From contig JAQGDQ010000447.1 of assembly GCA_030141605.1 (NCBI GenBank), positions 1 through 64,000 of the forward strand: DNA of 64,000 nucleotides, written 5' to 3'. Position 1 is the first letter of the stretch, and each line of letters starts with the position of its first letter. Under the pieces are notes generated by a model. It was not told the DNA's origin and searched no databases. It saw nothing but the letters and a program-made list of their open reading frames with translations. Origin of the DNA: Tubiluchus corallicola. Its lineage: Eukaryota > Animalia > Priapulida. Below are positions 28,174-64,000 of this stretch, in pieces. The translations under genes and the position numbers were made by a program.

Positions 28174-28326
28174 GTTTTCGACTGCCAAGGTTCTTTTCTC
28201 TCGTACATCAATACAGCTGGAGATCCTCTTTATGGCCCGCAAGGAATAACGGTAACTCACGATGGCCACGTACTGGTAGCGGATTCAGGCAATCACTGTT
28301 TTAAGATATACAAGTACTTACAGTAG
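28174..28326 (+). CDS. TRIM2/3: TRIM2/3-like last coding exon (final NHL repeat)
   Basis: TTTTACAG|GTT; [24 protein letters not shown]...[16 protein letters not shown] matches the TRIM2/3 C-terminus. Confidence 0.95.
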
Positions 28327-39440: not shown

Positions 39441-39621
39441 TTTATTGTACTTTATCAAACTGTAGAATTCCTGTGAATTAGACGTCAGGTCAAAAAAAGG
39501 CAAGTCCTTTTAGTTTTGTTTTGTTTTTAATTCAATGTGATATCTTGACGGTCCGTTCAGTTAGGGTTTCATCCCGGGGCCCAGGGCGCCAACTGAATGA
39601 TGTGAATTTTTTATTAGGTTA

Positions 39622-41227: not shown

Positions 41228-41455
41228 TTAGGCATAAGATTCAGAACCGCTGACTGTATGCCGTCGTGACGTTTCCGAATAACTCGATGAAAATTGCCTA
41301 TAAAAGTGGACTCCCGATTCACCAATGATTGATCTCTTCCTATCCACTTCATGAATACTGTCTCTCCACGAATCCACCTCGTCCACGATTCCACTTTCCT
41401 GTTTCCGCTTGCGTTTGTAATATTGCAACACTTCGAAGGAAAGCAGCACAGTCAG
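41228..41455 (-). CDS. SLC18B1: SLC18B1-like last coding exon (cytosolic tail)
   Basis: TTTGTAG|CTG phase 0; LTVLLSFEVLQYYKRKRK...SESYA*. Confidence 0.8.
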   Translation of the reverse strand: MTVLLSFEVLQYYKRKRKQESGIVDEVDSWRDSIHEVDRKRSIIGESGVHFYRQFSSSYSETSRRHTVSGSESYA

Positions 41456-44400
41456 CTACAAACAGAGAAAGTTGTGAAAAAAAATCTCAAAACATTTTTG
41501 AAGACCAAGATGAACTGCTGCTTCCGGACAGTTCCGGACAGTTTTCCTGCTTACTAACAATGGCAAGCCCAAAGAAAAACAGCAACCAATTTTATATTCA
41601 GTGTTGGGTAAGCCCAAAAAATGTAACATCAACCTTCTGGAAAAAAGTAAGTAACTACAGCTACATCAACCTTCTGGAAAAAAGTAGCTAACTACAGCTA
41701 CACCAACCACTAGAAAAAAGTAGTTAACTACACCTACACCAACTTCTGGAAAAAAGTAGTTAACTACAGCTACATCAACTTCTGGAAAAAGCAGCTGAAT
41801 ACAGCTACATCAACCTCTGGAAAAAAGTAGTTAACTACAGCTACATCAACCTCTGGAAGTAGTTAACTACAGCTACACCAACCTCTGGAAAAAAGTAGTT
41901 AACTACAGCTACACCAACCTCTGGAAAAAAGTAGTTAACTACAGCTACACCAACCTCTGGAAAAAAGTAGTTAACTACAGCTACACCAACCTCTAGAAAA
42001 AAGTAAGTAACTACAGCTACATCAACCTCTGGAAAAAAGTTGTTAACTACAGCTACACCAACCTCTGGAAAAAAGTAGTTAACTACAGCTACACCAACCT
42101 CTAGAAAAAAGTAAGTAACTACAGCTACACCAACTTCTGGAAAAATTAACTAACTGGAGCTACAGCTACCTCTGTAGTAGTGCTACACTAATGCTGTGAA
42201 AAAATATAGCTAACTACAGTGGCGCTACTAAAACAGCTGTAGACACTGTTACCCAACACTGTTTATACTGGGTTAAGATACATTATGGCATAAAATACTG
42301 ACATTCCCTAACTCTGTCATTATATGGTTTCTTTAAACTGTAGATAATGTTAATATTCTCATACGACTGCAAGCAGTGCAAATACACACTTGCGTTGTTT
42401 TACTAACTCGCCCCTAGGTGGCAGACAAAAAATTGCCAGGTCACCATAGTAACGTCAACTTTCTGGCAGTGTGACGTTAGAAGATACAGCAGGACAATGA
42501 GCATAGCGGCTGCATGTAACAAACACCTATTGTTCCACCTAAGCTATGACTTGCTGCTGCGTGAAATTTTACACAATTTTTTTACAAACATCATTAGCGC
42601 ACAAAAAGTTTATTCCAACATTTGCATAAATAACATATTCCAGTGGGAGGTTTCATCAGCTATTTAAAGCTGTTGGTTGTTTTTGTTTAAGTAAGTAAAT
42701 AATTTAACTACTTGAGAAAAACCTGCTGGAGTCCCGTGAAAAACGCTTTATTTACTGAACAAAACAGCATAAAATACTTAATAAAGTTACTGAAAATGCA
42801 CAAAAACCGAAAAATGATCTTGACACAAAAATGTGATCATTATAAACCTTAAGAACCCCTCTTAATAGATCCATTGACTGTTTTTACCAGCAAAAACTCA
42901 TTGTAACATAATTAACGACTATTGTGTAAAAAGTGAAAATGCTCAATGACGAGCAAGTTGATCGGGCACAACAATGAAACCTGTAATTGCAGTCATACGC
43001 TGTTGTGTATTATGTTCACTGCTATATAGCTTTTACATGTCAAATGTAGACACGGGAAAATTCAAATGTGACTTAGGTAAGTCAAATGTAGACATAGGAA
43101 TTTCGAATGTGTTTTAGTAACTCAAATGTGACTTAGGTGATGGGTGATTTAACACCTATACACATTTGAGATACCAATGTCACATTTGACTTGACATGTG
43201 TCTACACTTGACTTACCAAAAGCGCTCAAGATTCGTTGAAAGCCATTGTTAACACATTTGAGCTACCAAAGTCTACATTTGAGTTACCAAGACACATTTG
43301 AATTACCTAAATCTACATTTGAGTAAACGCAGGTCTACATTTGACATGTAAAACCTATAGAAGTTCCAAATCAACTTACCAATATTAAGTGCAGTGCGGC
43401 TACTATAGTTGTGGTCCACTCAAAGTTAATTGCTTGTACCAGAGCGCCACCTACTGATGGACCAAAGAATGCTCTGGAATAGAAACTAGCGTAAATAAAC
43501 GACGTGTAATCTTCCAGATCATTATTAAAGTTGTTTGGCAAGAGTAAAATAGATAGGGTTACCATATTGTCCGAGTTGAAAAAGAGGACACGGGTACTTG
43601 GCCTTCATTTCATCTGTAAATGCACACTGTCATTTCGGCATTGCTACTTTCTAACTTTTACCAGTTGCTCAAAACTGCAAAACAGTGTAACTATACAAAT
43701 TTAAAGAAATTCACATAAAAGCGAACAAAATGGCTCCCGGAAGCTGACGTCATTTTAAGTCGTTAGCGAATACGCCGAATATCGACAGTGGTGTGCGTCG
43801 TGTGACCCATAGTGATGTGCTCATTGCTTACTTTTGTTCAGTAAATATGTACGCAAAGCTTTTACAAGGGTTGCATTTGAGATGTTAGCAACATCTTGTA
43901 GTGAAAATTAACGAGCTTTTCTTTGTCTCGTACTGTCATACGCCTCTGCAGTTGGCAACGTCTGTACATACTTACGGATTGAGACAAAACCCGGACAGAG
44001 GCCCAAAAAGAGGACGTGTCCGGGGAAACCCGGACCTATGGTAACCCTAAAAATAAAGGCCGCTTTCACAAAGACGTTGTTATTACATTCACTTAACTAT
44101 TAATAAGGACGTCGTCAAGTTAGTGATGCCTTCGTAAAACTGCGCCTGGTACTTCGGAGAATTTAACAAAGAGGTTTTTCAACCAAACCAACATTTGGTT
44201 CCGTAATGGTAGCAGCTATGTACATACCCGAAGGAAAAACATGATGAAAATAAACCAGAGACAAGACCGTAAGTTTCAAAGTTATCTGGAAATCCATGAG
44301 CTCTGAAAAAAAACAAAAGCTATGAAATTCACAAGACGCATCAGACTAGAATTGAAATAAAATGGCAAAAGTTTCGTTGAAAATAAAATGCGATCAAACA

Positions 44401-47400
44401 TTAGGAAAGCTCTTTTGCTTGTAACTGCCCAAACTTAAAACAGTTTAAATACAGTGTGTCTGTCTCAAAAGTCACCACACACTGTGATTTTTCTTTTTCT
44501 TTTTGAAGTTTTCTCCAATCTCAGCAAGGTCTTACAAGAATAAATGCGGGTCTTTGACAGTTCTTTTAATTTGTTTTTTCACTGGAACACGGTTGCTATG
44601 ATGATGAACTGGGGCGAAAAACCTCAAAAAATGGTAATTTTTCGGACGTTTTTTTGCAAAAGTTATACGCGTGAGATCTGGAGAACGGGAATGGGCCGAG
44701 GGCGGTGCTGGCTATGGATAAATAGCCCGTTCAGCGGTGGGTGTAGTAGGCATATTTAGAATTTGCGAGAGAGTTACGGCGTCCCGTAACGGGCGTTTTC
44801 CCGGACCCAACTCGTGATTTTTTCGAAATTTTGACCAAACGGCATGAGGAAAAAACGCCTTAGCCTGGTGGGACTCTTGGAAGGAGATATACGGCTCTTT
44901 ACAAAGAGGAAGAACAGGGCTATACGATGATGTGAGCTATATTTTAGGGAAGGTCCACTGAGAGGAGTAGCGAGGAGTTAATTACATGTTCTATTTTCGA
45001 CAATTTTCGCTTAGAAAACTGCTGACGCAAAGCCATTGTTCTGACGTCATCCATTATGCTCTGTCTATAACCTTATAGCTTTAATTCAGTAAAAGCTGCT
45101 GCTCTGGCTTTGCGTTAGGTAAGTAAACAAACACTAGGTGGAACGTTTGCGTATTTTTGATTCTACGTGTATTTATACGCAAAATTTTTTACGGGGTCTT
45201 TGCTAGTCTATATATTAATATTCTTGATATATATATAAGATTCGAGGCTACAGCTCGGACGACGGCACCATTTGCGGCGATCTATACATCAAACGAAAGG
45301 TCTCGATCTAGTGTCGTGCCATTGGGGGTTTATTTTTCGAATCGGGCCCACCGGGACGAACGGGGGGCGAAAAACCTCCAAAAATGGCCATTTTTCGGCC
45401 GTTTTTTGCAAAAGTTATACGCCTGAGATCTGAAGAACGGGAACGGGCCATGGGTGGTGCTGGCTATGGATAGATAGCCCGTTCAGCGGTGGGTGTCATA
45501 GGCATATTTAGAATTCGCGAGAGGGCCACGGCATCCGGTAACGGGCGTTTTCCCGGACCCAACTCGCAATTTTTCGAAATTTTAGTCAAACAGCCTGCGG
45601 AAAAAACATTCTAGCGGCACCTGGTGGGACTTTCGGAAGGAGATATATGGCTCTTTAGAAAGAGGAGAACAGGACTACACGATGATGTGGGCTATATTTT
45701 AGGACACGTCCACCAAGAGGAGTACCGACGAGTTAATTAGATGTTCTATTTTCCGCAATTTTCGTTTGGAAAATTACATCATCCATTATATTCTGCCTAT
45801 AACCTTACAACTTTAATTCAGTAAAAGCTGTTACTGGCTTTGCGTTATAAATGAGGACTATATAGGATGTTTGCGTATTTTTGATTATACGTGTAGTTAT
45901 ATGCAAAATTTTTTGCGGGGCCTTTGCTAGTATAAAATTATTACATTTTGCTGGTTAACCTCAACAGGAAAGATTCAGTTGTTTGGCAAACCAGAACTAC
46001 TTGAAAAACGTAATAAACAAACTACTCCTCTCAAGCCTCATCTTTCAGTACACAATTACTCAATTCGCAAGCGGTTTTGTCTTTACTTTTATAGACAATA
46101 AAAAAGCTCTCCTAACTACGCAACAAAGCATGTAACTACTTTCAAAACTTCCTTAAACTCAGAACACCCAAAATTCAAACTTATACTTAAATTTTCAGTA
46201 CATAATTACTCAGTTCACAAGCGGTTTCGTCTTTACTTTTATAGACAAAAAAAAGCTCTCCTAACTAAGCAACAAAGCATCCAACTACTTTCAAAACTTC
46301 CTTAAACTCAGAACACCCAAAATTCAAACTCATACTTAAATTTTCTGTACATAATTACTCAGTTCGCAAGCGGTTTTGTCTTTACTTTTATGGACAAGAA
46401 AAGCTTTCCTAGCTAAGCAACAAAGCATCCAACTACTTTCAAAACTTCCTTAAACTCAGAGCACCCAAAATTCAAACTCATACTTAAATTTTCTGTACAT
46501 AATTACTCAGTTCGCAAGCGGTTTTGTCTTTACTTTTATGGACAAGAAAAGCTTTCCTAGCTAAGCAACAAAGCATCCAACTACTTTCAAAACTTCCTTA
46601 AACTCAGAGCACCCAAAATTTAAACTCATACTTAAATTTTCTGTACATAATTACTCAGTTCACAAGCGGTTTTGTCTTTACTTTTATAGACAATAAAAAA
46701 GCTCTCCTAACTACGCAACAAAGCATGTAACTACTTTCAAAACTTCCTTAAACTCAGAACACCCAAAATTCAAACTTATACTTAAATTTTCAGTACATAA
46801 TTACTCAGTTCACAAGCGGTTTTGTCTTTACTTTTATAGACAATAAAAAAGCTCTCCTAACTACGCAACAAAGCATGTAACTACTTTCAAAACTTCCTTA
46901 AACTCAGAACACCCAAAATTCAAAGTCATACTTAAACTTTCAGTGCATACAAATATTAAAACAAACTGTTTTTGAAATATTTTAAACGTTTCTCGAAGTC
47001 ACCGATACCACGGAGTTTTAAATCCATACTTAACTTTCAATACGGACAAATATTAACAGAAAATCACTTACAGAGACTGGACTAGACAGTCTTTAAATGG
47101 CGGCACGAGCTGCAGGCCGATTCCGAGACCAGTGACGCACAGAGCTAAAATCACTAACCATAAACCTGCCGACCTGAAAAAACGCAAAGCAACTTTTATG
47201 TCATTTATGATTTTTAAAAATTATAATGATTAGAAGTGATCACTTTAGTGCTTCGGAGGGCACAACGGTCTAGCCGGTTCCTCGGCTTCTGAGATTCCTA
47301 GGCAGTCACCCATCCAAGTACTAACCAGGCTCTACGTTACTTAACTTCGGTGATCAGATGAGAACCGGTGTTTTCAACGTGATATGGCCTATGTACTACT

Positions 47401-50400
47401 CGTAGTTATATACAGTCACCGCCGTTTATTACACTCACAGTTAGTAGAATCAGTCGCTTAATTGACTCAAATAATTATGCACAGCTGACTCAAAATTTTT
47501 GCTACAGGCACTTAAAATAAGACACCAGTGTGTGAGCGAAGAACTTTTACTACTTTTACATCGTTTACAAAAATGATCAAATACAACATCATCGCTGTTT
47601 AGTGGAAGTAGTTTTTCATGAACCCATGTAAAATGCAGCAAACGTTTACGGTCCCCTGGGAGTTACTTGAGTCAAAACACTTCCGTTCTAAAGTGAGTCT
47701 ATTAAGTGGCGCATACTATAACACTACGGCCAAATCACGTTGAAAACATCGGTTCTCATCTGATCACTGAAGTTAAGCAACATAGAGCCTGGTTAGTGCT
47801 TGGATGGGTGACCGCCTAGGAATATCAGGTGCTGTAGGCTTGCGGGATGCCCACACTGTATCTCGACACTAGGAGGAGGAGCTGCACAAGCAGCCAACGG
47901 CTAGAGGGCGGAGGAGGTCAAGTGACCCAACGGCCATGTGTAGAGGTGTAGACCTTCTAAATCAGGACTGGAGCCCCGAAGGCGGACCAGTGCAGCATGC
48001 TCACTGACTCAGGCAGCTCCTGCAGCCAACCTGGTGCCAAACGTATCGCCACACTTTCCTTTGGACTACACCAGGGAGGAGGAGAGAGGGTTCCTGTTGT
48101 CTGGGCAACTCAGGATCTCCATACACCTTGCCCAGGCGTGTGCCCTGGAGACGTTCAAGGATCGGACTCTCTTGGCACCCACTCCATTGTCTTCCGAGAC
48201 AGAAGGATGCCAACAACAACAACTATAACACTGAAGAAGTACAACATCTGTTAATGAAAATTCCACTAACCCTCGCTCTATGAAGAATATCGGTGAAGGT
48301 CCCAAAAGCAACATTCCCATCATGCACAGAACGCAGCCAGCAGACATAAACAACTTCGCATGAGCCTGTAAACAAAAAGTATATCTCAATATGCTTGAGT
48401 AGCGAGGCAGACAAACAAACAAACGAGCACACAGAGGTTGCAATCATATAACAGAAATTTGAAAAGTAAAAATCATCTAAAGATACAAAATGATTCATAT
48501 AAGAAAAAACACGGCAAAGCTAAAAACTGAACCCAGATTTGAACCCAGGATTTTCAGTTACAATGTAAATGCTCAACCATCAGACCACACATCAAACAAT
48601 TCTAAAATTCTGTCACAGTCGCTTTGTCTCCAACTGAAGGTAAGTTGATCTGTTTACCGCGACTTGAGCAGCTACTGGAATGAAGCCAGAATCCCTCAAA
48701 ATAAAAATCACTGTAGGCCTAGTGGCTGAGAAGTTGAGCTTATGGCACGGAGATTCCTAGTTCAAGCCCAGGCTTAGCCATGACCTTTTTATCTTTTCCA
48801 TTTTTGGAAATTTGATTTCAAAATTAAATGGTAATAAGTTTTGGCTTAAACTAATACCTTAACATGGAAAATAGCATAAGACAAGGTATGAATTATTACA
48901 ATTATTAGCATGCTCATTATTGGTATTGTACAACCACTATCATAACTTTTTTTAGCACTGTAAATATGCACTTTCTTGCACGCCCAAAGATAATATATGT
49001 ATTAAAACAAAATTTCACAATGTAATTAATGTTTGGCTAAAACTATTCTATCACATGTAAGAGATGGTGCTGAGTCCATGGCAGTGAATGCTCGTGTATA
49101 CGTACTGTGGAACTGCAGCACTCCCTTTTCACTCCATATTATTGATGATATTCAACCTAGCCACTGGGGGGGGGGGTGGCAAGCCAGCCCAACTCAGTGC
49201 CGGTCCCAAGCCCGGATAAATAGGGAGGGTTGGGGTCAGGAAGGGCATCCGCCTGTAAAAACTGCGCCAAAACCGTCTATGAATGAGTCGGTGAGACTTA
49301 AAGGTAATGTCCACAAAGAAGTGGTCGCACCCGCTCTAATCTATGGGCTGGAAGCAGCTTCTCTAAAGAAGACCGAAGAGAAGAAAATGGGTGTGGTGGA
49401 GATGAGGATGTTGAGATGAATGGTGGGAATAACAAGAAGAGATAAAATTAGAAATAATAATATCAGAGGAACAGTAAAAGTAGTGGAAGCCTCGCAAGAT
49501 TGCGATGGTATGGACACCTGAAAAGAAGAGTCGGGGAAGATCATGTGGGAAGGGAGGTCATGGAAATGGAAGAGCTGGGAAATAGAAGAAGAGGACGACC
49601 CAAGCGGAGATGGATTGAATGTTATTAATGGAGACCTTAGAGAGAAGAACATAAATGAAGAGATGGTCAAATACAGGAATGTGTGGAGAAGATTCATTCA
49701 CAACGGCGACCCCGCATAGGGAAAAGCTGGAAAGAAGAAGAAGAAGAAGAAGAAGAAATTATCGACGATATTCAATATAATGAGACGTTTTCTTTAATTG
49801 TTTCTTTACACTTGTACATATTTGTAAATCCTTGTATTTAACAAAATTGGAACAGTTTTACACACTAAAATCAGCTTGTAACACTGGTGGAAAAGTATAA
49901 ATCTGAGGTACAAATCATGAAATGATGTACATTTACTGTAGTCTAAGTAACTAATATCGGACATTCATCTCTGAATCCAGTTTCACATCACCAAAAGTCA
50001 CACAATCATAGACAAACAGGAAACAAAATATCCATGCAAAAAATCACAACAAACAGTTTTTCAACAAGAACAGTACATAACTACTGTTGCTGCATCAGTG
50101 AATTAAAGGAAAAGTCAACCCTTTTGGGAATTCAGGCTTTTTTCAACGTTCGTTAAAAATGTTAGAAGGATTTAGTAATAAAAGTGTGAAAAGATCCTCA
50201 TGTAGTTAGCAAAAATCAGTTTAAAGTCGCGATTATCTCACGCTTCGGAATTCCCATTTTGGACGCCCGTTCTTCCATCTATGCATCAGTTATCAGCTGA
50301 AGAAAAGTAGTGCACTGTCAATCTTCATCAAAAAGTACAGGATTTTACAAAAAAGGCAGCTGATTTTGTGATATTTTTGCATGAACATTATAAATAAGCT

Positions 50401-53400
50401 GCAGAAGTTTGAATGCACGGTGAGCTTACGGAAAGCCTCGAAGTTGACTACTTACGTCATAATTTTCAAGTGAATGGTGGCTCCCCCACCTGCCTGAAAA
50501 TTCCTACACAGTGGTAGTATTAATTAGCTTGGTGTTTTATAGACAATTTTTTCTCAAATTCCTTTGCCACATTTTTCCGAGTTTTCTAAGTGATAACAGT
50601 AAAATGAACACAAAGTGACTAGTGCTTTCCTTTAAATGTCTGACCCGCTAACCAGCTTTACTAGACCAGTAGAGAGTAGAAGGTCTCTACAGAATACTTA
50701 CGCAAGTGTCGCTAAGATAACCCCAGAGTGGGGTGACAACCGTGTCAACTCCGAACATGCACAGAAACACAAGGCCTACCTTTTCGGCTCCTAAATTGTA
50801 CTGAAACATCAAAAACCCAAAAATTACACTACGGATAGAGGAGATATTCTGAACACGTATACTTACGTAGTTGTCGCTGAGATAACCCCAGAACGGGGCA
50901 GTAATCGTGTACACTCCGGACATGCAGAGAAATACGAGGCCGACAATTTCTGGTCCTATATTGTACTGAAATATCAAAAGGAAAATAAGCAAAAACCGGA
51001 AAACAAAGAATAAGACGAGCACAGGCAACGAAAGCAGGGATGTAAGAAATTTCAGCTTGAACTTTTTATATCTTTGTTTATGCAGAGTGTTTTCTTGTGC
51101 TTTAACAAAGACACGGAAAAAGTGAAGAAGTTGAAAATGCATGTAGTAGCTTGCAGCTCAGACTGTTGATTGTTATTTAGGACATGAGTTACAATTTACA
51201 GACAAAACATTAATTTGTCAATCAAAAGTGCTAATATGAGACTAAAAGCGCACAGAAAAGTGATAAATAAATTGGAATAGAATTACTGAACACAAGAATA
51301 TCAAAGAAGATTGTCTTATTAAGGCAGGGGTGTGCAAATTCTGGCCAGCCGAGAGAATTTGTGCAGCCCGCAAAGAGGTTTGTCAACCTAATGAAAGTGC
51401 GGCCTGGGAATTAATTGAGTGTATCCAGCTGAAGTCCGTGCCACGATCCCAAAGATAGTGCGGGTAGTTTTTTCTACTAGATCAGATGCCATTAACCCTT
51501 ACAAGACGGTTGTAGCTTAATAACACTGTACTACACAGACTGTGTGATACACATTACTAATATGCATTGTAATGAAATTACCACTATCTGTCCTGAAAGT
51601 AAAAATATATGGTTTGTAATATAAATTTTAATAACTTCTAAAATAGTTTCTTGAGTGTAGTTGTAATGATGTACGCAGGTCGGATGCAAAAAAAATCATT
51701 ATTAGGCCTTTCAGTACTTGGCTCCTTGATCAAACTGCCCGTGGCCCGCAGGAATTGCGGGAAAGTTTAATGTGACCCAGCTAGTCAGATAATTTGCACC
51801 CCCTGTATTAAGGGAAACTAGAATATTCTATAAGCATGTGAAAATACAGTGTGACTACTAAAGCAAGCAAAGCAACATGAAAATAAGCTTCATTACTGTC
51901 ACACTTAAGTGATTACTTGTCTAATTAATTATCTCTATATTTAGCTTGTGTAGACAGCTTTAGATAGCAATGAACGCTGTGAATACTGGGGCTGGTATCC
52001 GGTGAATGTAACAAGACTTGAGATTACATGTTGAAATATTGCCAGAGAGCGTATAACATCTGTAGGGAAGACACTTGTGAAAAAGATGAGAAACTTTTGG
52101 ATAATTCACCAGGCCAGGGATGAGAATGACAAATTGCAAAAAACTCTGAAACAGGCCGGGGGTTTTGGGGCCGCCTAGGCCCCCAATGGGGTTCAAGGGA
52201 AGCCCCCTTGGAGTCAGCAACAAATTGCAATTTTGTGAACATAGAGAACCTCTAAGTGGACTTACAATATCAATTACATTGTTTCATGCATAATTTAAAA
52301 TACCCAACTATCAAGGATACATGATACCTAATTGTCTCAAAAACGCCTAAGTACTGGTCGCTCCTATACAAAAGTTATAAAAACTGTCTGCAATTGACTC
52401 AAATAACTCCGCACAATTGATTCTATATTTTTATACATAGAGATCTACACGTGGTTACACTGATGTACGTGATGTAAACAAAGTGATGGCCTGCCAACTA
52501 GCGGTCAGCTTGTGAAATAATGTATTGGGTCCGTAAAAATTTTCTCAACAAAAATGGCACTACTGGTCTTCCAAAAACTCGGAATTCCGCGTATCCGCGG
52601 AAAATTCTCATCCCTGCACCAGGCTCGAGACTAATAATGTTCAGTTAAAAACAGAAACACTCGCACATTAATGCAGGCACAAAATTTCGCATTAGTAATG
52701 TTTTTCCTTTAAAAAGCATGCATGCAGTAAAAAAATTTCTTACGGGAAATTTTTAGCACTCGGAAATTTTTTACCTAATACACATTTCACGGGTTTCCGG
52801 AAATTTTCCATAACAAACTTTATAATTATATAGTATCACATTATCAAGCATTTGCATGAAACACGGAAAACTACAGTGTCAGCTTTTTATCTATGTACCA
52901 AAATTGTGTGCACAATGTTGCCCAGTGCAAGACTGCAAAAGCTAAGAAATTATTGGTAATAAAGGTATAACAACAAAGGTATGTTCTCTTCATTGATTCT
53001 TAGTAGTTTAACTGACTACGGCCAAATCACGTTGAAAACACCGGTTCTCGTCTGATCACCGAAGTTAAGCAACGTAGAGCCTGGTTAGTACTTGGATTGG
53101 TGACCGCCAAGGAATACCAGGTGCTGTAGGCTTGCGGGATGCCCACACTGTATCTTGACACTAGGCGGAGGAGCTGCACAAGCAGCCAACGGCTAGAGGA
53201 CGGAGGAGGTCAAGTGACCCAACGGCCATGTGTAGAGGAGTAAACCTTCCAAATCAGGAGTGGAGCTCCGAAGGCGGACCAGTGCAGCATGCTCACTGAC
53301 TCCGGCAGTTCCTGCAGTCAACCTGGTGCCAAACGTATCGCTCCGCTTTCCTTTGAACTACACCAGGGAGGAAGAGAGGGGGGTTCCTGTTGTCTGGGCA

Positions 53401-56400
53401 ACACAGGATCTCCATACACCTTGCCCAGGCGTGTGCCCTGGAGGCGTTCAAGGATCGCACTGCTCAGCCACAGTTGATGCTGCAGCTCCATCAATTTGAT
53501 CAATAACTGACTCTCTTGCCGCACACTCCATTGTCTTCCGAAACAGAAGGATGCCAACCAGTAGTTTAACACCTTCAGAACCGTAAGTGTTTGCTACATT
53601 TTACATGGGTTCATGAAAAACTGCTCTCACTAAGCAGCGATTACGCTATATTTCATAGTTTTTGTAGGTTTTTACTCCTTACGGGTTGGATTTTAATGCA
53701 AAATTATACATGGAGGGCATCTGCTCACCTTAGACAGATTAAAAATCGATTTTTGGCTAAAAACCTTTAAGTAACTGCAGCGTTTGCCCTGTAGCAATAT
53801 ACAGTATCACTTGTGTGAAATCGGCCAATGCAGAAAGTTTCAACTATCCAGACACAACATTCTGATGCACTTTGGCCTCAAGTCTATTTTTAAGGAGAAA
53901 TTCCTGTTAAAACATGAAATGACCTTAATTTGTCCTTGACTGATCTGTTGGTTTTTTCTGGAATAGCAACAGAACACTGCACAGCTTGCGCTGTAGCAAG
54001 CAGGCGATCAATAAAATCATGTGTACGAACACGCAAGTGTACAACAGACTAAGCTACTCAATAGGCTAAGTTGGAGTGCCTGGAGTGGGTGTGTTTTTTC
54101 TTAATTTTATCCAATTAAATCACTTATAAATGTTTAAACAAATAGCATGATTGGATAACCGAGATTCTCCTGAATAGAAAAGTACCAAATTTAGTTATCA
54201 CTTAGTTATGTCTGTGCTGATAAGGTAGCAGAAAAGTCAAAGGTCTTATAAGACCTATTTTCAATGATACATTCTTACTCAATTTTATCGAATTAAATTA
54301 GTTATAAATGTTTAAACAAATGGCATGATTGGATAGCCAAGATTCTCCTAAATAGAACAATATTTAATTTGTAATCATTTAGTTATGTCTGTGTTCATAC
54401 AGTAACAGAAAAGTCATAGGTCTTACAAGACCTAATTTGAACGGTGCGCTCCTGAAGGAGTTAAAGCGAGCTAAAACTCGGCAGGTAACGGTCAACACTT
54501 AAAACATTGCACCAATGCCAAAGTAGTTTAAGTGAGTATCATAACTTGTCTACGTCGATTTCGCAAATATTTCTAGCGGTGCTCGGGTTTCATTGTGCTG
54601 CTAAGGAACTAATGCTGTGTTCTTCAAAGGTAGTTTGCATTTCCAATTCTTAAGAGCCAACTACGTTTGACTTTATGGACCAACCAATACAGAAAACAAT
54701 AAATTTATTATTCATTACGTTCTCGAATGGTAATATTATCCGCCTCAGATATCTAACAACACAGCATTATGTTTGCGACGGACAAAATACTATAATTACC
54801 ACCACAGAGAAAATGATTTACACATTGAAGACAGATTAATCTATAAATTAAAGCTTTCAACAGTGAAAACAGTTTGCAGCGTGCGACACATAACCTACAA
54901 AGTAATCAGTGCATGAAGACAAAGAGACGATGAAACATACAGGGGAGGCTTGCAGAAAAAATTGTCTAAAAACATCAGTACAGTGAAAGAGTTGAGTCAC
55001 GACGCAGGTAAAAAGTGAGGCACTATACTCGACAAAGAACCTATTCCAAATTTGTCTCGGTGACAAGCAGAATTAAAGAAAATGTTGCAATGAAAGAATT
55101 ACTAAGACGCTAAAGAATTTAAATTATAAACAGAGAGAATGAAGAATTTTTGCAGAAAAACTGGAACGGTGAAATAGTGCTGTGTGATGACATGTGGTAC
55201 TACTACGGTGCACGCTGTACCTGACGAAGAGCGGGTTCCAGGTTGGGTTCGACGACCGTTATCGTCACGGCAGCAGAAGAGATGGTAGCGGACGACACCA
55301 GCACCGTTGGTATTGTCAGCAGCGTTAGAAACGAATGAGGAGAACTGATCACTTGATCTGTGAAACAAGCAATTTTAGAAAAGCAAGCACAAGCAAAAGA
55401 AAAATTAATTCCAGGCAAAAGCTATTCTACGAAAGAGTATGGAAATTAGATAAGGTAACAGTAATTGCAAAAAGAAGTTAAGCATTGATTAATCATTATA
55501 TAATACTATATTTGGATAGTAGCAAAATTTTTAATACGAGATATCAAAAAATATGCTTATAAAGTACTGTTTCAGCATCATAAGAGTAACTTAAAAAAAA
55601 CATCATATATTCGAAATAGCAATAAATATCTATTACCAAGTACGTCAAATTTATTCAGTTCTTACCACCTAGAATATTCAATAAATACGTTTTCTATATT
55701 TCAAAAAATTTAAAGAAAGAATTAAAAAATAATGTAATAACGATCAGATGAAACAGTGACGTAATCAAGTCGAATTTAACTAAACAAGTTTTGAAACTCT
55801 CACAATTTTTTCAACGCAATTATAGCAGAATTTAATGATTTGCTAAATTAAAGCTAAACTGTGGCAAATTTTGATGACGTATAATCTTTTTCATAAAAAA
55901 AATGCGTGCAGCATTTGCTAGCACAAGAAGAGCAAAGCAGCAAATGAATTAGTACGGCACAGCAGAGTGTGGATGCATACGGATCATACGTGGAAACATT
56001 CAACACTAACTAATAACCAATTTCCCCATTCACTGTGTTAAAAGTATGAAACAGAAGCATAGAGAAGAGAAAAATCGATGGGGCGAGCTCAAAAGATATG
56101 GAATTGCTACATTAATCACAAAGAAACACTAGGTCATGTCTGTAAGACCAGTACAAGAAAGACTAGTGCGTTTGGTAAGGGTTGTAGTCTCAACATTTTA
56201 CAACACAAAGGAAAATTCTATTTCGCAAAACAATATTGAGTTAATAATAGTTTTCAACAAATGCAACAAAAGTCAACATACAACACCAACAAACGACGAT
56301 ATGCTACTAGAAGTCGTACGCTGATTTATTCACTAGATGTCACATGTATGCTGTGGCAGCGTTACATGATGTGTCACACGATAGATCTCAAATCACTTTC

Positions 56401-59400
56401 AAGATAATAAGCCTTTTCAAAAATGTAGCAATTGATGATGATCGTGAAAAAGTCAAAGTTTAAGTGTACCAGACCACGCATTTGTGTACACTTGGCAACG
56501 CCTCGCAGCCCAAGCTATTGACATAGTGACCATCTTAACACCTAGCTAGAACCTTACTTAGTTCATTTTTCCTTGTTCCCAAGCAAGATCCTGCTAGCAA
56601 TTAGATTAATGCATAATTAAGTAAAGACCACATAAAACAATTGAAGTTACTGAACTGACGTGGCAGACAGTTTTGATTCACCCACGGGTCACGTGACGGT
56701 TGTAGCTGAGATGCGTTGCAGTAGCACACTTAACCTTTGACCTACAGCAACTGCGAGTGCGCACAACGAAACTGTGAAAAGGCTTACTATAATGTAATAA
56801 CTCTCTGAACGATTAAAGAGATGTTCAACATAACAAATTTTTAACTCACTACAGAAGTCCTTTAAAACCGCATTAACTTAATGCGCAATGATGTTAGTTT
56901 TTTTTGCTAAAATATTTATGGAGCTTAGAAAGACACAATTAAGCACGTTTTTGAAAACAGGTATAAGAATCTCATTAAAGATTTTGATCCAATGTACATA
57001 CATGTTTTTGTTTTTTTACAGAAATTTTCTAAAGCACAAGAAAGTGTTTTTGCGACTTTTGGTGTACTTTTGCGTTGCACGTAATATCCAAGAAATACTT
57101 ATTCTTAATCTTAATCTTAATACTTAATCCTGATGAAAGTGACATGATATCAATACTATTGGAAGATCTTCTAATCAGGGTTAGACGTGAAGGCAAGCTG
57201 AGTGATTCATTTTTCACAAATAAAGGTGTACCTCAAGGAGACTGCCTAAGTCCTGTTCTGTTCACTTTCTACCTTGCTGTGGCATTAATGGACAGGAATA
57301 GTATAACAAGAAAACAACTTTGTGACCACAAATATTAATCGAAGCTAGATCCAGAATGACTGCTGTCGGGAACAGAGGTAGAATGAACACCATTACGCTA
57401 ACCAAACGGAATATCTTATCACCATAGACGTGTATTAAGTGAAACTTAAAAGCTACGCAAACTTCGGACAATGTCAAAGAACAGTATTCTGTAAATAAAC
57501 AATTTGTTAAAAACAAGCAAACACACACACACGGCATAAATAAAAAAATAAGCTACTATAGCAGTTAATGAATGGAACAGTCAACAAAGAATTTCACGGT
57601 TCATATAGAACACACGCACATCTGAAAAAAAATAATTGTCAGCAAGTAGGTCTACTCCACTACTAATGCAAAACAGCAGCCTACAAAAAATCAATAATTG
57701 CATTAGCACATACAAAAATACAATAAGTAAAAATTATAACAGAGAGCAGATTTAAAACAAACAATAAACGATACACTGTCCTGCTATCGCAATACAAATC
57801 CTGCAAAACATTAATAAATATATTAGTATGCATAACAACGCCAGAAACAAATACAAGTAGTTCGAAACTGACGACAAAAAATGAACCACCTGTGAGAAAA
57901 ATCGGAAACTGAATGTTAGTATAGAAGACGCATCTAACAGACGGATTACAAAACTGAAACAAAACAGAACTTGTCAAAAAAACTTGGCCCAAGTGCCTCT
58001 GCAGTGAACAATAATTTCAATTAGCGGATGAGATGTAAATGTAGTGGGTGCATAGGCCCTTTTTTGGTTTTAAATTTAGTTCTCAATTACTGCCACGGTG
58101 CTGCCACCTGTTTGTTTATTTAGTAGGCTTTTTACCTTTTACTGTAGTCACTCTTTTAAAATTGAAGCACCTAATATCCTTGAATACATTAGCATTTTGG
58201 CCTTTCGTGAGCTATAGCTGTAGTAGTTGTATGACATTTTACCTGTCTTTTGGTTCTCTCCGCCATTGCTCTATTTTTCTTACGCATTATGACTGTGAAT
58301 TTCTTACGAATTCATTGTTGTGACATTGTTGTTCTTAAGGCAACTTGGAGTTCTCATTCCTGTCTTTGTAACTGTTAAAGGCTCTAACAACGTAAGTTAT
58401 TGTTAATTAATTTCAATATAGTCTACATAATTTTTATATCAGTACTTAGTTATAGCAATACATTTAATCATACAACTAATCTTCTTCTATTCAATGTAAG
58501 TTAAACTAAATGTTAATAATTGTATTTCAGAATAAAGAAACTTTTGGTCAACATGTTAAACTGGTGTTTGGTATCCATTTCAGTAAAAAAATCTAAGCTT
58601 TTGGGTTTTTGCTATATGAATTTACAGAGCTTAAGATATTACAGCATCTGTAGGCCAAGGTAATGTCCACCAAGTGTACACCACAAACAATTTTCACAAA
58701 TTGACAGATTTAAGACAGTTAAAGGTAGCCAATGTTCTTCACTTATTCCAACGGCGAGGTTGTGTGAGTTACCAAAACTTATCTACTTACTTTTTGCTTC
58801 TACCGTCACTTAAACTGTGTCAATGTGAATTGTGATGAAAACTGTTGTCAAACAATGACGATTTCATATTCGTTTTGGTTTGTTGCGTACACTTGGAAAG
58901 GACATCATCATGCCTCGTAAACACAGCACAGCATGCCAACATCTGAGCCGCGAAGCTTACCGCTCAAAAATACCGTAATCCTAAAATACCTCTGCCAGTC
59001 TTCCTGCCAGGAACGGTTCGATAACTCCTATCGTGCTACCGGCTACCACAATAGTTAAACCGCCAAGAATGTTCGTCGGGATCCTTACTAGTGAGAGTAT
59101 TGAAAAGCCAGACTTGGGAACTTGGTCTAGAAGAAAGCAATGATGTAACACGTGAAAACACGCAAATGCCCGACGTGTCTTAATGTAATAAAATATTGTG
59201 AAAATTAAATTCCAAGACAAAGCCATTTTTTTTCGCTTACTCAGTACTGATTAGGTTTAAGCATTCTGTATCAGAAAGCAACAAATGGAATGGAATTTGT
59301 GACTTTCGAACTCGAATCAAACCGAATTCCATTTTGGAATTCAATTTTAAAGACTTTCGAATAAATTTTTCAATCATTAATAAAAAATGATCTCACAGAG

Positions 59401-62400
59401 ATTATGCAAACTGTAGGTCAAAACAATTTACTCTTTAAAATATTGAAAAGAAACATACTATTTTTCAAAAATGGCTCATGTGAAAGAATTATTACCACAC
59501 AAACATGATTTCATGTTCGTGCCACTAGTTCTTCGCTGTTAGATGCATTTTTAGATCCATTCGCTAGTTAAAAGGGCACTAGCATCTGCATCTTGGAAAC
59601 AGATTGCACAAAAACAGGGGCTGTAAATCTCAGTTCAGATGTGTTAGTTTGTGACAAACTACACACGTTCGACAGCTCATGCGTGAGCAAGTGGTAAATT
59701 TGAAATTTGAATTCTTATCTTAGAACTTGCCTAGTTTTAGTACAACACACAGTATTACCTTACACTATATCTTACAGTGGCACTGTACTTCAATTTTCGC
59801 TTTTGCAAACACGTGCAACACGCTTGTGAAATATCTTTGCTGCTAAAAATTATGTTAGTTTGTGATATCATCAACAGTTGGGCTCGTCTGCCAGTGATTA
59901 AAGTTTTAATCTGTCATATAATTATTAGAAATGCTTTTGCAGTATTAAATGTGTTAAAATGTATGTTTTTTACCGTACTTGAAAATAAGGTAGTATACGA
60001 AAAATCATCCAGTCTTCATTTAAGCTTTACATCAAAGTGCGAAAGTGTTACCTACCATTCTGAGCGGGCAATAAGAATGTGCTCACCGCTGCACAAGTCA
60101 ACAATATGCAACCCATGACTAAAAACGGCAAAATAAAACCTCCAGCCTGAAAAAGACACCAGCAAAATGCACAAGCATATTTCATGAAAACAAAACTTGT
60201 CTGGACACGTTTTACGCCATCTGAAATGCACAATGACTGTTTCTATCTAAAATTACAGCACCATGCATAACATTAAGGATGCTGGTACACTGCTAACTTT
60301 TATCATCCAAGAAAAACCGTCATTGTGCCACAGGTGCCAGCTTTCGTTTGTCGACTTTTATCATTCGACAAAAATCTTAAGTGATTGTTCAACTTTTGCT
60401 TGCAAACTTCACAGACACCTTTGTGCAGACTTTAGAACACTCCTGTACTTTTTGATAAAAGTAGTGTCATATCAATGAAAATCAGAAATGGCCAAAACAT
60501 TCAAAATATTTTGTAACATTTTGTTGACAATTTTTCTTGGCCGCTGTATTGACTCTAGTTGTCATCAGAAGAGCTCTGTTTAACCACCAGACAAAATATT
60601 GCAACATTAGTCGAGGAAATTATGAAGTCAAAACTCTTCCTGAAGTCGGGAAACACAGAAGATTTCACTGCAAGTCAGCGGCTGTATGTGGAAAAATCAT
60701 TAGTCTAGTATAAAAAAACCTAAAAACGAACATAAAAAGAAAAAGGTCGTGCATAAACAAATAAAATCTGCAAAGAAATCTACGCATCTGAAATAAAAAA
60801 GCAGATGAATTAAAAGAAATTAAATAAAAATAAATATGCATCCACACTCTGCTGTATGATCTATTTCAGCATTAATAATACGGCTTTGCAGTTGATAATC
60901 CTCAAAAAGCTTGCCAGCTTTGCACATTTTGCGGAATGTACTATTACATTTCACATTACCAACCGTACGTAATTGTAATCAAGCGTTGATTTGACGTACA
61001 GCGTGTATTTCTTCGCGCTTCAATAATAACGACGTAATCACACGTCATGCGCGTTGGTTAGTTCAGCAGTTGGCGAAAACCGAAGAAAAATATTGCTGGC
61101 ATGCAAGTAATTTCGTAAGAACACATGCACGGTAAAATGGATTGGAACATTTTTGTATCCAACTGAAAGCATAAGAAGGATATGATTTCACAGGGCAGCA
61201 TGCCAATTATACCCACCGTCCTGTTCAGGCAACAGAAACAAACTGATTACGACGCAGATGAGCATGATCCCGCCCATGACCTCAAACGGTAGTAACCATC
61301 CACCAATCTGTGCAAAGGTTACATATGAACGTCAAAAAAAGTACAACCAGGGAAAATAGTTATAACATACATGCTTGCACTACATGCTAAAATTTTTGCT
61401 ACAATCTAGTACAGTAAGTCCTCGCTCATCGACGCTAAGGCATTGCAGCAAAATGCGATGTTAAGCAAAATGTCATTAATCAAAGCCAGGACTTCCATAA
61501 AAAGTAATGTAAAAGAATTGGCATACGTTCCAGAGACAAAAATCACTGCTGCTTAAAATCATATAACTCATGAGTTATGAGTTTTATTATATTTCTACCA
61601 TTTAATTTCTTTCTGTTTCCTTGAAAGCAGGTATCTTTCTTAGCAATACTTAGCTAGACTTGCTAGTAAATTCTCTTTCGTTAACGATGAAGCACTGTAC
61701 AGACAGTAGGGGTGAGCATCGAACGCTCGAATTCGATAGGAACGAGTTTTTTTAGTTGGAACTCAATTCGAATCCAAAACAATAGATTCGAATAATTCAG
61801 CACTTCAGTCACATACGTTCTTTATCATTAAAACGATTGAAATGCAATTAGCATTATTTAGCAGTGATTTCTGTGCACAATTTTAAACAAATTACTAGTC
61901 GTTTTATTGCAGAACAAAATCTAGTGATATGCATGATCTTTGTAAGACTAATTTTTACTGGTGGTTCGAAAACTTGTTCGAAAATCTTTCAATCTCGAAT
62001 TCGAAACACTGAAGTTCGGTTCGATTCGAATTCGCTTTCTGGTAAAGAATGCTCACCCCAAACAGACAGTAGCGATTAAACACTGCATAGTGAAATCCAA
62101 GCCCTGGAGTACTAGTCTAGTTGCTATATAGCAACAGGTTGCAGACAAAATTCCTTGGCATAAAGTTTGAACTCAGTGTCTGGAGACATATAAATCACAA
62201 ACAGATCTCGCTTGACACAAATGGTTAGCAGTTAGTAGTCAGCCGGGAAGCAAAAACATTTAATAATTGTACTGTTTTACATTAGTACTACGTTTTAGGA
62301 CAGAATGATGCAATATGCATCGTTTTAAAGCTTCAAATTATATAAAAAAAGTTGTTGATAAATGGCTTTGAGCGAAGTAAAAAAATCGTTGTTAAAATGA

Positions 62401-64000
62401 AACTTACGTCATTAAGTTAGAAAAAGGTGTCAAATGTTCAGTGTCGTTAAAACGAAGCATCGCTAAATGGGAGGCGTTAAGTGAGAACTTACTGTACTAA
62501 CGTGCCATGAGTTTGTCGTTAGCGTAACTTATCGGGAAAGTCGCATACAAAAGATTCGTTTTTTTTAAAAAACTGGGTGATAAGAAACCGACGGATAACA
62601 GCTGTTTATATATTAAAATGCAGTGCAAAAGCGAAACTAATAGGAAGCAATCTAAACCGTGCAAAAAAAATAACAAAATTTAAAACATTTATCCAACTAA
62701 ACATTTCTCCATGGCATAATATCGGCATAAAAAACGTGACAACAAAAACATCTGCAACTCACCCCATACAAAACTCCACCAATGGGAGGTCCTACCATTA
62801 ATCCCAGACCGGTGAATGTTTCTAAAAGGCCCTAAAAGACAAAACGTAATTTGTTTTAAATAAGAAGCAGACTGAAAATTCTATTTCAAATATGCAGTTC
62901 CCAAAACTAAAAAATACAATTTAGATTCAGGTAGGTTTATTTACCTTTTGTAATACACAAAAAATCAAGTACATAGCAAAATATGTTTAGTAGTTAGAGA
63001 AAGTGTAACCTAGCCACTGGGGGGGGGGGGGGGAGGGTGAGGCAAGCCAGCTCAACTCAGTGACGGTCCCAAGCCCAGATAAATAGGGAGGGTCAGGGTC
63101 AGGAAGGTCATCCGCCTGTAAAAACTGCGCCATAACCTTCTATGAATGAGTCATGAGACTTGAAGGTAAAGTCCGCAAAGAAGTGGTCAGACCCACTCTA
63201 ATCTATGGGCTAGAAACAGCTTCTCTAAAGAGGAATGAAGAGGGGTGTGGTGGAGATGAGGATGTTGAGACGGATGGTGGGAATAACAAGAAGAGATAAA
63301 ATTAGAAATAATAATATCAGAGGAACAGTAAAAGTAGTGGAAGCCTCGCAAGATTGCGATGGCATGGACACCTGAAAAGAAGAGTCGGTGAAGATCACGT
63401 GGGAGGGGAAGACATAAATGAAGAGATGGTCAACAACAGGAATGCGTGGAGAAGACTTATTCACAACGGCTACCCCGCATAGGGTAAAGCTGGGAAGAAG
63501 AAGAAGAAGAAGTTAGAGAAAGTGTGGCGAAAAAACCTTAGAGGTTAGCAAATCAGCCACCTTTTTAGTTAAAATTAGTACAAGAATATCTAGCGACGAT
63601 TTAAGCTGGTATGAAACACGAAAATCATGTCAATCTGAAAAAATATAATAAGGAAATGATTAAGAAAAAAATAAATCAAACTAGTTTTAAGTGGTAAAGT
63701 AACACGCCAAAATAAAAACAAGAACAAAACAAACATAAGCAAAAGAGATTGAGAGACAAAAAACTATCAGAAGTGGATAATTTAGTGTTGATAGGAATTC
63801 TCACTCCTTTAAAGCAAATAACGAAGGTGCGAAAGGCAGTAGAAACCAACGGTTCAGTTCACATTCAGCTTTTTTACTTACGAAAACGGTCGCCACTCTT
63901 CCCGGAAACTCGTTGGCAATGATGGCAAAAGAAGCCGTTACAAATGCCGTAGCTGCAATGGACTCACATATCCGTACCGCAAAACACAGCCCAACAAATA
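41228..64000 (-). CDS. SLC18B1: SLC18B1/VPAT-like MFS vesicular amine/polyamine transporter, 5' end outside the window. Exons: 63882->64000, 62763-62831, [61217-61307 or 60056-60146], [58990-59126 or 55221-55357], [50867-50965 or 50702-50800], 48271-48365, 47072-47173, 44228-44302, 43380-43473, 41228-41455
   Basis: Peptides CFAVRICESIAATAFVTASFAIIANEFPGRVATVF, GLLETFTGLGLMVGPPIGGVLY, GFPDNFETYGLVSGLFSSCFSFGAFFGPSVGG match SLC18B1 as I recall it; every intron GT-AG with consistent phase. Confidence 0.92.
41599..42261. mobile_element. hAT-like MITE containing a 36-bp minisatellite (~41628-42170)
   Basis: TIR CAGTGTTGGGTAA; TSD TTTATATT/TTTATACT; unit AACTACAGCTACACCAACCTCTGGAAAAAAGTAGTT. Confidence 0.88.
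43025..43359 (+). mobile_element. MITE family A
   Basis: Both TIRs; ends ~20 bp from the exon boundary at 43380. Confidence 0.88.
43380..43473 (-). CDS. SLC18B1: SLC18B1-like exon (TM11-12)
   Basis: AFFGPSVGGALVQAINFEWTTTIVAALHLIL; CAG/GTAAGT. Confidence 0.92.
43554..44049. mobile_element. hAT-like MITE
   Basis: TIR TAGGGTTACCATA; TSD AAAATAGA/AAAATAAA. Confidence 0.85.
44228..44302 (-). CDS. SLC18B1: SLC18B1-like exon (TM11 start)
   Basis: AHGFPDNFETYGLVSGLFSSCFSF; phase 2/2. Confidence 0.92.
44595..45930 (+). mobile_element. Tandem non-autonomous Helitron-like pair (5'-truncated copy to 45206, full copy 45207-45930)
   Basis: 5' TCTATATA start, 3' CTAG ends, GCAAAA-TT-TTTTGC hairpin ~14 nt before the end, exact CTAG|TC junction. 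Confidence 0.78.
46045..46950. repeat. ~149-bp tandem repeat, ~6 copies
   Basis: AATTACTC at ~46054, 46204, 46353, 46501, 46649, 46799. Confidence 0.95.
47072..47173 (-). CDS. SLC18B1: SLC18B1-like exon (TM10)
   Basis: SAGLWLVILALCVTGLGIGLQLVPPFKDCLVQS; TTTTTCAG/GTAAGT. Confidence 0.92.
47294..47389 (-). pseudogene. 5S rRNA-derived fragment (about nt 7-102) fused to a different downstream sequence
   Basis: GGCCATATCACGTTGAAAACACCGGTTCTC...GATGGGTGACTGCCTAGGAAT followed by non-5S sequence. Confidence 0.88.
47724..48221 (+). mobile_element. 5S-headed RTE-derived SINE, copy 2
   Basis: 5S head 47724-47841, (CAA)n tail, TSD ACTATAACACT (47715-47725, 48222-48232). Confidence 0.93.
48271..48365 (-). 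CDS. SLC18B1: SLC18B1-like exon (TM9)
   Basis: AHAKLFMSAGCVLCMMGMLLLGPSPIFFIER; phase 0/2. Confidence 0.9.
49156..49757 (+). mobile_element. Non-autonomous bipartite RTE (Expander/Rex3-like) element, copy 1
   Basis: 5'UTR-like segment joined to decayed ORF end (VVAPALIYGLEA, EMRMLR), (GAA)n tail, TSD ATTATyGAyGATATTCAA. Confidence 0.88.
50702..50800 (-). CDS. SLC18B1: SLC18B1-like alternative exon TM8-b (99 bp)
   Basis: YNLGAEKVGLVFLCMFGVDTVVTPLWGYLSDTC; TTTCAG/GTAAGT. Confidence 0.88.
50867..50965 (-). CDS. SLC18B1: SLC18B1-like alternative exon TM8-a (99 bp)
   Basis: YNIGPEIVGLVFLCMSGVYTITAPFWGYLSDNY; TTTCAG/GTAAGT. Confidence 0.92.
51325..51805 (+). mobile_element. hAT-like MITE family E
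   Basis: TIR CAGGGGkGTGCAAATT; TSD TATTAAGG. Confidence 0.9.
52115..52616. mobile_element. hAT-like MITE
   Basis: TIR CAGGGATGAGAAT; TSD CACCAGGC. Confidence 0.88.
53013..53559 (+). mobile_element. 5S-headed RTE-derived SINE, copy 3
   Basis: Full 120-nt 5S head 53014-53133 with no oligo-T terminator; TSD AGTAGTTTAAC (53002-53012, 53560-53570). Confidence 0.93.
54098..54440. repeat. Two-copy ~180-bp tandem duplication, possibly inside a TTAA-flanked element (~53570-54460)
   Basis: TTATAAATGTTTAAACAAATrGCATGATTGGATArCC occurs twice. Confidence 0.75.
55221..55357 (-). CDS. SLC18B1: SLC18B1-like alternative exon TM7-b (137 bp)
   Basis: DQVISSPHSFLTLLTIPTVLVSSATISSAAVTITVVEPNLEPALRQ; TTTCACAG/GTACAG; phase 1/0. 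Confidence 0.87.
56408..56786 (+). mobile_element. MITE, TAAGCCTTTTC family
   Basis: TAAGCCTTTTCA ... TGAAAAGGCTTA; colinear with 28381-28764. Confidence 0.8.
57125..57338 (+). mobile_element. LINE reverse-transcriptase fragment
   Basis: SDSFFTNKGVPQGDCLSPVLFTFYL, a non-LTR RT motif. Confidence 0.85.
58990..59126 (-). CDS. SLC18B1: SLC18B1-like alternative exon TM7-a (137 bp)
   Basis: DQVPKSGFSILSLVRIPTNILGGLTIVVAGSTIGVIEPFLAGRLAE; TTCTTCTAG/GTATTT; phase 1/0. Confidence 0.87.
60056..60146 (-). CDS. SLC18B1: SLC18B1-like alternative exon TM6-b (91 bp)
   Basis: AGGFILPFLVMGCILLTCAAVSTFLLPAQN; TTTTCAG/GTAGGT; phase 0/1. Confidence 0.9.
61217..61307 (-). CDS. SLC18B1: SLC18B1-like alternative exon TM6-a (91 bp)
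   Basis: IGGWLLPFEVMGGIMLICVVISLFLLPEQD; GCACAG/GTGGGT; phase 0/1. Confidence 0.88.
61707..62061 (-). mobile_element. hAT-like MITE family D, copy 2
   Basis: TSD ACAGACAG; reverse complement of 27613-28021. Confidence 0.9.
62763..62831 (-). CDS. SLC18B1: SLC18B1-like exon (TM5)
   Basis: GLLETFTGLGLMVGPPIGGVLYG (MFS motif C-like); TTTTAG/GTGAGT. Confidence 0.93.
63007..63510 (+). mobile_element. Non-autonomous bipartite RTE element, copy 2
   Basis: Colinear with 49156-49757 plus one extra deletion; TSD AGTTAGAGAAAGTGT. Confidence 0.88.
63882..64000 (-). CDS. SLC18B1: SLC18B1-like exon (TM4), cut by the window end
   Basis: FVGLCFAVRICESIAATAFVTASFAIIANEFPGRVATVF; GTAAGT donor. Confidence 0.92.

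Follow-up and report, generated by a model that had tools for sequence, protein, structure and literature searches.

Three adjacent duplicated exon pairs in a priapulid SLC18B1-like transporter gene, and intronic helices predicted to link choice at two of them

How does splicing choose when three consecutive exons of one gene are each present twice? The question is raised by a 64,000-nucleotide stretch of the genome of the priapulid Tubiluchus corallicola (assembly GCA_030141605.1, contig JAQGDQ010000447.1, positions 1 to 64,000; hereafter the window), animal DNA of ~36% G+C in which an SLC18B1-like gene on the minus strand runs from the window end (64,000) to ~41228, its exons 1-3 lying beyond the window. 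A first-pass annotation, whose exon numbering is retained here, proposed a Dscam-like system of free 2x2x2 choice yielding 8 isoforms. This part of the proposal is not supported: one intronic site, D, is complementary to two partners beyond chance, and the predicted helices would tie pair 6 to pair 7. The account towards which we lean, with some reserve, is that the three pairs are spliced one exon per pair and that competing intronic helices make the choice at pair 7 depend on that at pair 6, so that the two are not free.

Anatomy of the three exon pairs

By homology, the gene is assigned to the SLC18B1/VPAT-like transporters of the major facilitator superfamily (MFS) above other SLC18 members. 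Exon 4 is 92% identical to the SLC18B1-like protein of Priapulus caudatus (XP_014668059.1, hereafter P0001), the sole relative among 16 candidates, and P0001 matches human SLC18B1 structures with an E value of 1.7e-67, compared with only 2.6e-9 for the best VMAT2 match and a VAChT match likewise far below. Exon 6 encodes transmembrane segment 6 (TM6), exon 7 the central loop helix and TM7, and exon 8 TM8.

The duplicated anatomy described in the first-pass annotation is borne out. Lengths are equal within each of the three adjacent pairs (91/91, 137/137 and 99/99 nt), and all six exons have AG acceptors and GT donors. Amino acid identity is 17/30 in pair 6, 19/45 whole codons in pair 7 (20/46 when the junction residue is included) and 22/33 in pair 8, and the corresponding nucleotide identities are 50/91, 63/137 and 76/99. 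Each of the 8 exon combinations can be read through without an internal stop, in a frame of 369 codons counted from exon 4 up to the stop codon. The flanking exons are single copy, as claimed earlier: profiles built from 144 homologues find exons 6, 7 and 8 twice and exons 5, 9 and 10 once in the 64 kb, and tblastn with exons 4, 5 and 9-13 gave no second copy in the window. The claim that a single block duplication cannot explain the arrangement holds in so far as no single event yields all three pairs, but the order 6a, 6b, 7a, 7b could result from one two-exon block inserted into intron 6. A candidate third exon 7 near 56694-56830 was rejected as a repeat: it contains a stop, resembles sequence found elsewhere in the window, has high sequencing depth and matches no profile. 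The coding exons in the window, together with the shortest intron between pair members, are as follows.

63882..64000, minus strand: exon 4 (TM4), single copy, truncated at the window end (identity to P0001)
62763..62831, minus strand: exon 5 (TM5), single copy, with the E171 equivalent (alignment, exon profiles)
61217..61307, minus strand: exon 6a, TM6 variant (splice sites, profiles)
60056..60146, minus strand: exon 6b, TM6 variant (similarity to the P. caudatus exon)
58990..59126, minus strand: exon 7a, central loop helix and TM7 (splice sites; weakest donor of 12 scored)
55221..55357, minus strand: exon 7b, central loop helix and TM7 (splice sites, frame)
50867..50965, minus strand: exon 8a, TM8, family-typical, Y284 equivalent present (splice sites, homologue alignment)
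50801..50866, minus strand: 8a-8b intron, 66 nt, candidate branch motif at ~+40 to +44 (sequence)
50702..50800, minus strand: exon 8b, TM8 variant with Y284D- and A281F-equivalent changes (splice sites, homologue alignment)
48271..48365, minus strand: exon 9, single copy (profiles, tblastn)
47072..47173, minus strand: exon 10, single copy (profiles, tblastn)
44228..44302, minus strand: exon 11, single copy (tblastn)
43380..43473, minus strand: exon 12, single copy (tblastn)
41228..41455, minus strand: last coding exon, with stop codon (frame)

Splicing of one exon per pair is likely because of three features of the sequence. Joint inclusion shifts the frame in the first two pairs, giving a stop at codon 122 of 399 for 6a with 6b and at codon 140 of 414 for 7a with 7b. 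Inclusion of both 8a and 8b keeps the frame, and here the 66-nt intron has a candidate branch motif ~43 nt from the donor, below the 50-nt steric criterion for exclusive exons applied in the available part of PMC5740500. Thirdly, the proportions of nonsynonymous and synonymous differences (pN/pS) are 0.29/1.0, 0.47/0.71 and 0.17/0.44 for pairs 6, 7 and 8 (Fisher p 1.6e-9, 0.013 and 0.009). The check on substitution rates advocated in the first-pass annotation, made here between pair members, thus has the nonsynonymous rate (dN) below the synonymous rate (dS) in all three pairs, which argues that both copies are selected as protein, doubtfully so for the 8b branch taken alone. This same argument speaks against unproductive splicing, in which joint inclusion or skipping would shift the frame and lower transporter levels via nonsense-mediated decay; the early stops on double inclusion of pair 6 or 7 would suit such a scheme, which we consider very improbable. 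Judged by silent divergence, pairs 6 and 7 are old (silent sites saturated in pair 6, dS 2.25 and nearly saturated in pair 7) and pair 8 younger (dS 0.67).

One intronic site with two predicted partners

The evidence for linked choice comes from duplex prediction in the introns between pair members, which singles out the following elements.

60834..60870, minus strand: element D, intron 6a-6b, predicted to dock with either of two partners
60147..60182, minus strand: polypyrimidine tract and acceptor of 6b, first predicted partner of D
55958..55980, minus strand: element S2, intron 7a-7b, second predicted partner of D
58935..58968, minus strand: 5' arm of candidate helix H3, directly past the 7a donor, suggestive only
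51130..51170, minus strand: 3' arm of candidate helix H3, ~200 nt upstream of the 8a acceptor, suggestive only

D (60834-60856) and S2 are the two halves of a perfect 21-nt inverted repeat, which lengthens into a helix of 23 bp. The predicted energy of this helix is -41.2 kcal/mol, whereas the best of 40 shuffles gave -28.6. The two arms lie 4.9 kb apart, and the helix would loop out 6b and 7a. The 21-mer is present at just these two sites, and both arms have single-copy depth in DNA run X1 (~6, versus thousands in repeats). The alternative pairing of D, with the 6b polypyrimidine tract and AG, is predicted at -37.5 kcal/mol, a value that none of 2000 local shuffles and none of 25 gene-wide ones attained; the other 11 acceptors pair with D at -13.1 to -21.5 kcal/mol, the 6a acceptor at -14.1. 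All-against-all scans, which covered helices starting upstream of 54753 (in one scan, of 60335) and used two full null runs and part of a third, placed D-S2 at -44.0 and D-6b acceptor at -36.8 kcal/mol, compared with null maxima of -35.2, -33.5 and -35.1. The D-S2 helix is accordingly strong in both kinds of search, and the D-6b acceptor helix draws on the conditional, targeted comparison because its all-against-all margin is small. A further helix, H3, would run from the 7a donor to the region before 8a (-34.5 kcal/mol), loop out 7b and cross D-S2; the prediction is suggestive only.

Other pairings were set aside: the inverted pair 50324-50352/60431-60459 (-26.0 kcal/mol) lies within the range of shuffles, and duplexes between 6a and the 6b donor (-33.2) and between downstream of 8b and upstream of exon 9 (-32.2) are within null values. 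A docking site common to 8a and 8b was not found in the duplex search, and Rfam has no known structure at the helices. We also note a local hairpin after the 7a donor (58665-58912; 58911/58701) at -35.9 kcal/mol, just past the three null maxima, whose 3' arm (58687) is also complementary to exon 8a at the two codons that have changed most in 8b (-32.7, within null values).

These elements suggest a model in which 6b-7b-8a would be the default, family-typical isoform. As the transcript emerges, D would pair first with the 6b acceptor, hiding it, favouring 6a and blocking 6a-6b joining. Once S2 has been transcribed, 4.9 kb later, it could capture D, the new helix being more stable by ~9 kcal/mol; 6b and 7a would be looped out and 6a placed beside 7b. 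Where exon 5 has instead been spliced to 6b, D would leave with the intron and 7a would become available. Use of 7a may be aided by the weaker helix H3, looping out 7b and leading to 8a; the 7a donor, which scores lowest among the 12, may need this help. The 66-nt intron would probably bar 8a-8b joining sterically. Bridging of D and S2 over 6b and 7a would thus link the two choices and disfavour 6a-7a, leaving ~4 to 6 isoforms with 6a-7a rare.

Independent choice at the three pairs, with all 8 isoforms as in Dscam, would draw on the open reading frames of all combinations and on the fact that the helices are predictions. We hold it to be improbable, since the predicted 23-bp helix, which is far beyond chance, reaches across both 6b and 7a, its 5' arm covers the 6b acceptor as well, and, as shown below, pocket contacts barely differ in pairs 6 and 7.

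The perfect inverted repeat bounding exactly 6b and 7a, in introns that are rich in repeats, could also be taken for the ends of a transposon. The duplicates would then be a fragment of a paralogue, interleaved or carried in by the transposon, or else a product of misassembly. This explanation is barely credible. The copies are 46-77% identical in DNA and so too diverged for alleles, the flanking exons are single, the arms are low-copy and the sequence has no target-site duplication. Run X1, which may be the source sample, has contig pieces that include 6a, 7b and a portion of 7a along with adjoining intron, and P. caudatus likewise has two copies of exon 7.

Several observations weigh against linked choice as we have set it out. 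The D-6b acceptor helix is just barely beyond the null maxima of the all-against-all scan. H3 was picked post hoc as the best of 21 donor/acceptor neighbourhood pairs, was reached by 2 of 421 shuffles and falls within the all-against-all null values. Each helix arm has some local pairing of its own (mean unpaired probability 0.29-0.52), and the helix predictions come from the sequence of this one species. D-S2 pairing would also free the 6b acceptor, so that the net effect might oppose looping out, and we are for this reason less sure of the direction of the link between pairs 6 and 7 than of its existence. Runs X1 and X2 were compared with positions 53700-62950, a segment that excludes exons 4, 8a and 8b; X1 behaves as DNA and X2 covers repeats only, so that RNA reads and contigs cover no exon there, no junction is seen, and the runs offer no evidence either way. 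Lastly, orthology of 7a and 7b to the two exon-7 copies of P. caudatus gave p values of 0.70, 0.30 and 0.30 in approximately unbiased (AU) tests.

Relatives, the substrate pocket and variant 8b

Conserved pairs in related species, which the first-pass annotation proposed as a check, are found in part. P0001, from the nearest relative, has two exon-7 segments in tandem, back to back; this is one protein model and concerns pair 7 only. Of 287 proteins, 12 have a repeated segment, and a lone exon-7 repeat occurs in P0001 only, the other 11 looking like whole-gene repeats or cross-hits. The 286 other proteins, which are gene models and not genomes, include no duplicated-exon pattern in non-priapulid members. 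In the AlphaFold model of P0001, the first exon-7 copy has a predicted local distance difference test score (pLDDT) of 41-60 and the second copy forms TM7 with pLDDT >90. The alignment supplied to AlphaFold may bias which copy is favoured, and the contrast fits an annotation that has fused two alternative exons. XP_014668059.1 is thus probably misannotated at residues 236-337, where the public model joins the two copies; the same model has a short, odd TM3 region.

The remaining exons of P0001 resemble the family-typical copies: its exon 6 matches 6b at 25/30 residues versus 16/30 for 6a, and its exon 8 matches 8a at 25/33 versus 19/33 for 8b. Trees of exons 6 and 7 gave no resolved placement. 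A genomic fragment, P0147, contains an exon 8 with 30/33 identity to that of P0001, which could be a second copy, an allele or the exon of a sister species. Protein database searches yielded no transcript-derived priapulid isoform, and 8 distant loci (26-48% identity) from a metagenome scan were set aside. Elsewhere, fused models with two SLC18B1 units occur (P0002 and several others, such as the 849-residue model from Strigamia), as do many same-species SLC18B1-family paralogues in Littorina and Branchiostoma, so that whole-gene duplication seems to be the route by which other animals diversify the family.

The substrate pocket of human VPAT is lined by M48, Y51, F79, E83, R137, D140, F144, M148, E171, F251, D255, F277, M280, Y284, F380 and W384, as given in the available parts of two sources (PMC12049414, PMC13490608). 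The charged positions R137, D140, E171 and D255 are R, E, E and E in the T. corallicola gene, and the position of E83 lies beyond the window. Of the aromatic positions, F277 and F380 are kept, Y284 is found in 8a only, and F144, F251 and W384 are A, I and F; M280 is kept as well, and F277 and M280 are common to 8a and 8b. No mapped human VPAT contact falls in TM6 (exon 6). At the TM7 contacts, 7a and 7b agree, with I at 251 and E at 255, and they differ at the neighbouring positions 248 (G/A) and 252 (G/T). The earlier suggestion of different substrate pockets is therefore sustained mainly for pair 8, 8b being the sole variant to alter a mapped pocket residue; pair 6 has no mapped contact, and the mapped contacts of pair 7 are identical.

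Two changes stand out in 8b. Position 281 is S in 8a and F in 8b, with F in 0 of 134 homologues, and position 284 is Y in 8a and D in 8b, with Y in 133 of the 134. We take S338 and Y341 of VMAT2 to be the equivalents of these positions. Both VMAT2 residues touch substrate, according to the accessible part of PMC11695631, and mutation of Y284 in human VPAT lowered the maximal rate (Vmax) and raised the Michaelis constant (KM) more than twofold, according to that of PMC12049414. All 7 polarisable differences within pair 8 fall on 8b and none on 8a, a skew that a new function and relaxed selection would each explain. In exon 6a, Trp4 and Glu9, the latter near the TM6 start, each occur in 0 of 140 homologues.

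The pattern in 8b bears on whether the variant copies are used at all. Profile scores mark 6b (45.3 vs 35.7 for 6a), 7b (33.7 vs 18.6 for 7a) and 8a (51.2 vs 29.1 for 8b) as the family-typical copies and 6b-7b-8a as the likely default isoform. It might then be that 6b-7b-8a alone is really used and that the other copies, 8b above all, are rare or decaying spares, the helices mainly keeping exons out. These scores would be in keeping with that, as would the one-sided differences in 8b, the replacement there of a Tyr whose mutation impairs transport by human VPAT (PMC12049414) and the weak 7a donor; the locus would then be a case of ordinary retained duplicate exons. We nevertheless consider this fairly unlikely. 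Pairs 6 and 7, at or near silent saturation, still keep exact length, frame and splice sites, a second exon 7 has been retained in P. caudatus, and the D helices act against the conserved copy 6b, which fits promotion of 6a.

Linked choice with real use of both copies thus remains our preferred reading. A bolder version of it, which we put forward tentatively and regard as possible, is that one RNA element in the intron works as a switch with two states, masking an acceptor in one pair or spanning the pair that follows, and thereby gives a set menu of TM6-TM7-TM8 modules, in which 8b, by exchanging Tyr for an extra carboxylate, would confer a different amine specificity or proton coupling.

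Neighbouring features and comparison with known systems

Outside the transporter gene, the window contains a TRIM2/3-like RING-B-box-Filamin-NHL gene at 24781-28323 (plus strand), mostly one 757-codon open frame, and exons of a second gene at ~38875-39500 (minus strand), which begins directly downstream of the transporter gene and presumably resembles EMC7. Three full-length 5S ribosomal RNA matches were seen, at 53014-53132 and in the exon 9-10 intron; two of them run into a common 300-nt repeat, which suggests a 5S-derived mobile element. Tandem repeats occupy 41600-42150 (last intron) and 46050-46950 (intron after exon 10).

Linkage between neighbouring clusters of exclusive exons is usually taken from long reads, without a mechanism. 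The locus described here is a compact and mutable candidate, in which one 23-bp helix and one masked acceptor predict the missing combination. It would also be a case in which an SLC18 gene yields differing isoforms, with a naturally occurring exchange of Tyr for Asp at a site of the pocket that has been probed in human VPAT, and it comes from a phylum that is molecularly little studied.

In keeping with the first-pass annotation, we found no report of exclusive exons in SLC18B1 or in priapulids, in a literature search that left subscription papers mostly outside; the same search gave no helix spanning members of two adjacent clusters. Exclusive exons in transporters, multiple or interleaved clusters, competing helices, acceptor masking and pseudoknotted pairs are all well known. 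The protein resembles human VPAT (PDB 9D7U series) and P0001 in its MFS_1 fold and its exon-by-exon homology. Of the pocket of human VPAT, it keeps R137, E171, F277 and M280 and has Glu in place of D140 and D255, and it differs at F144, F251 and W384. In SLC12A1, SLC25A3, SLC39A14, ABCC9 and the MRP genes of Drosophila and C. elegans, equal-length homologous exons swap a membrane segment, a recurrent arrangement in ion transport genes (PMC9741552, PMC5740500), and the available part of PMC9741552 indicates that exon-substitution variants of transporters mostly keep the same ligand residues. Compared with those transporters, three consecutive exons are duplicated here, covering TM6-TM8 with no constitutive exon between.

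The closest parallels to the predicted RNA structures are found in systems with competing pairings. The docking-site/selector and bidirectional pairings of Dscam, 14-3-3zeta, Mhc, MRP1 and srp similarly combine one site with competing partners and looped-out exons, and D-S2 and H3 cross like the srp pseudoknot; in the accessible accounts, however, those structures act within one cluster (PMC6071210, PMC4691838). In human CUX1, the choice in one cluster depends on another, but this is a transcription factor with nested clusters, and the available part of the source describes no RNA helix mechanism (PMC5740500). In ATE1 (R1/R3/R4, R2/R5), an element located between the exclusive exons 7a and 7b covers a 3' splice site by base pairing, in competition with a further partner, as D is predicted to do (PMC7797038). 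According to the part of that account available, the pairings in ATE1 mask either acceptor within one and the same pair, whereas D has no predicted pairing with the 6a acceptor and has its second partner inside the next pair, so that it would link two pairs.

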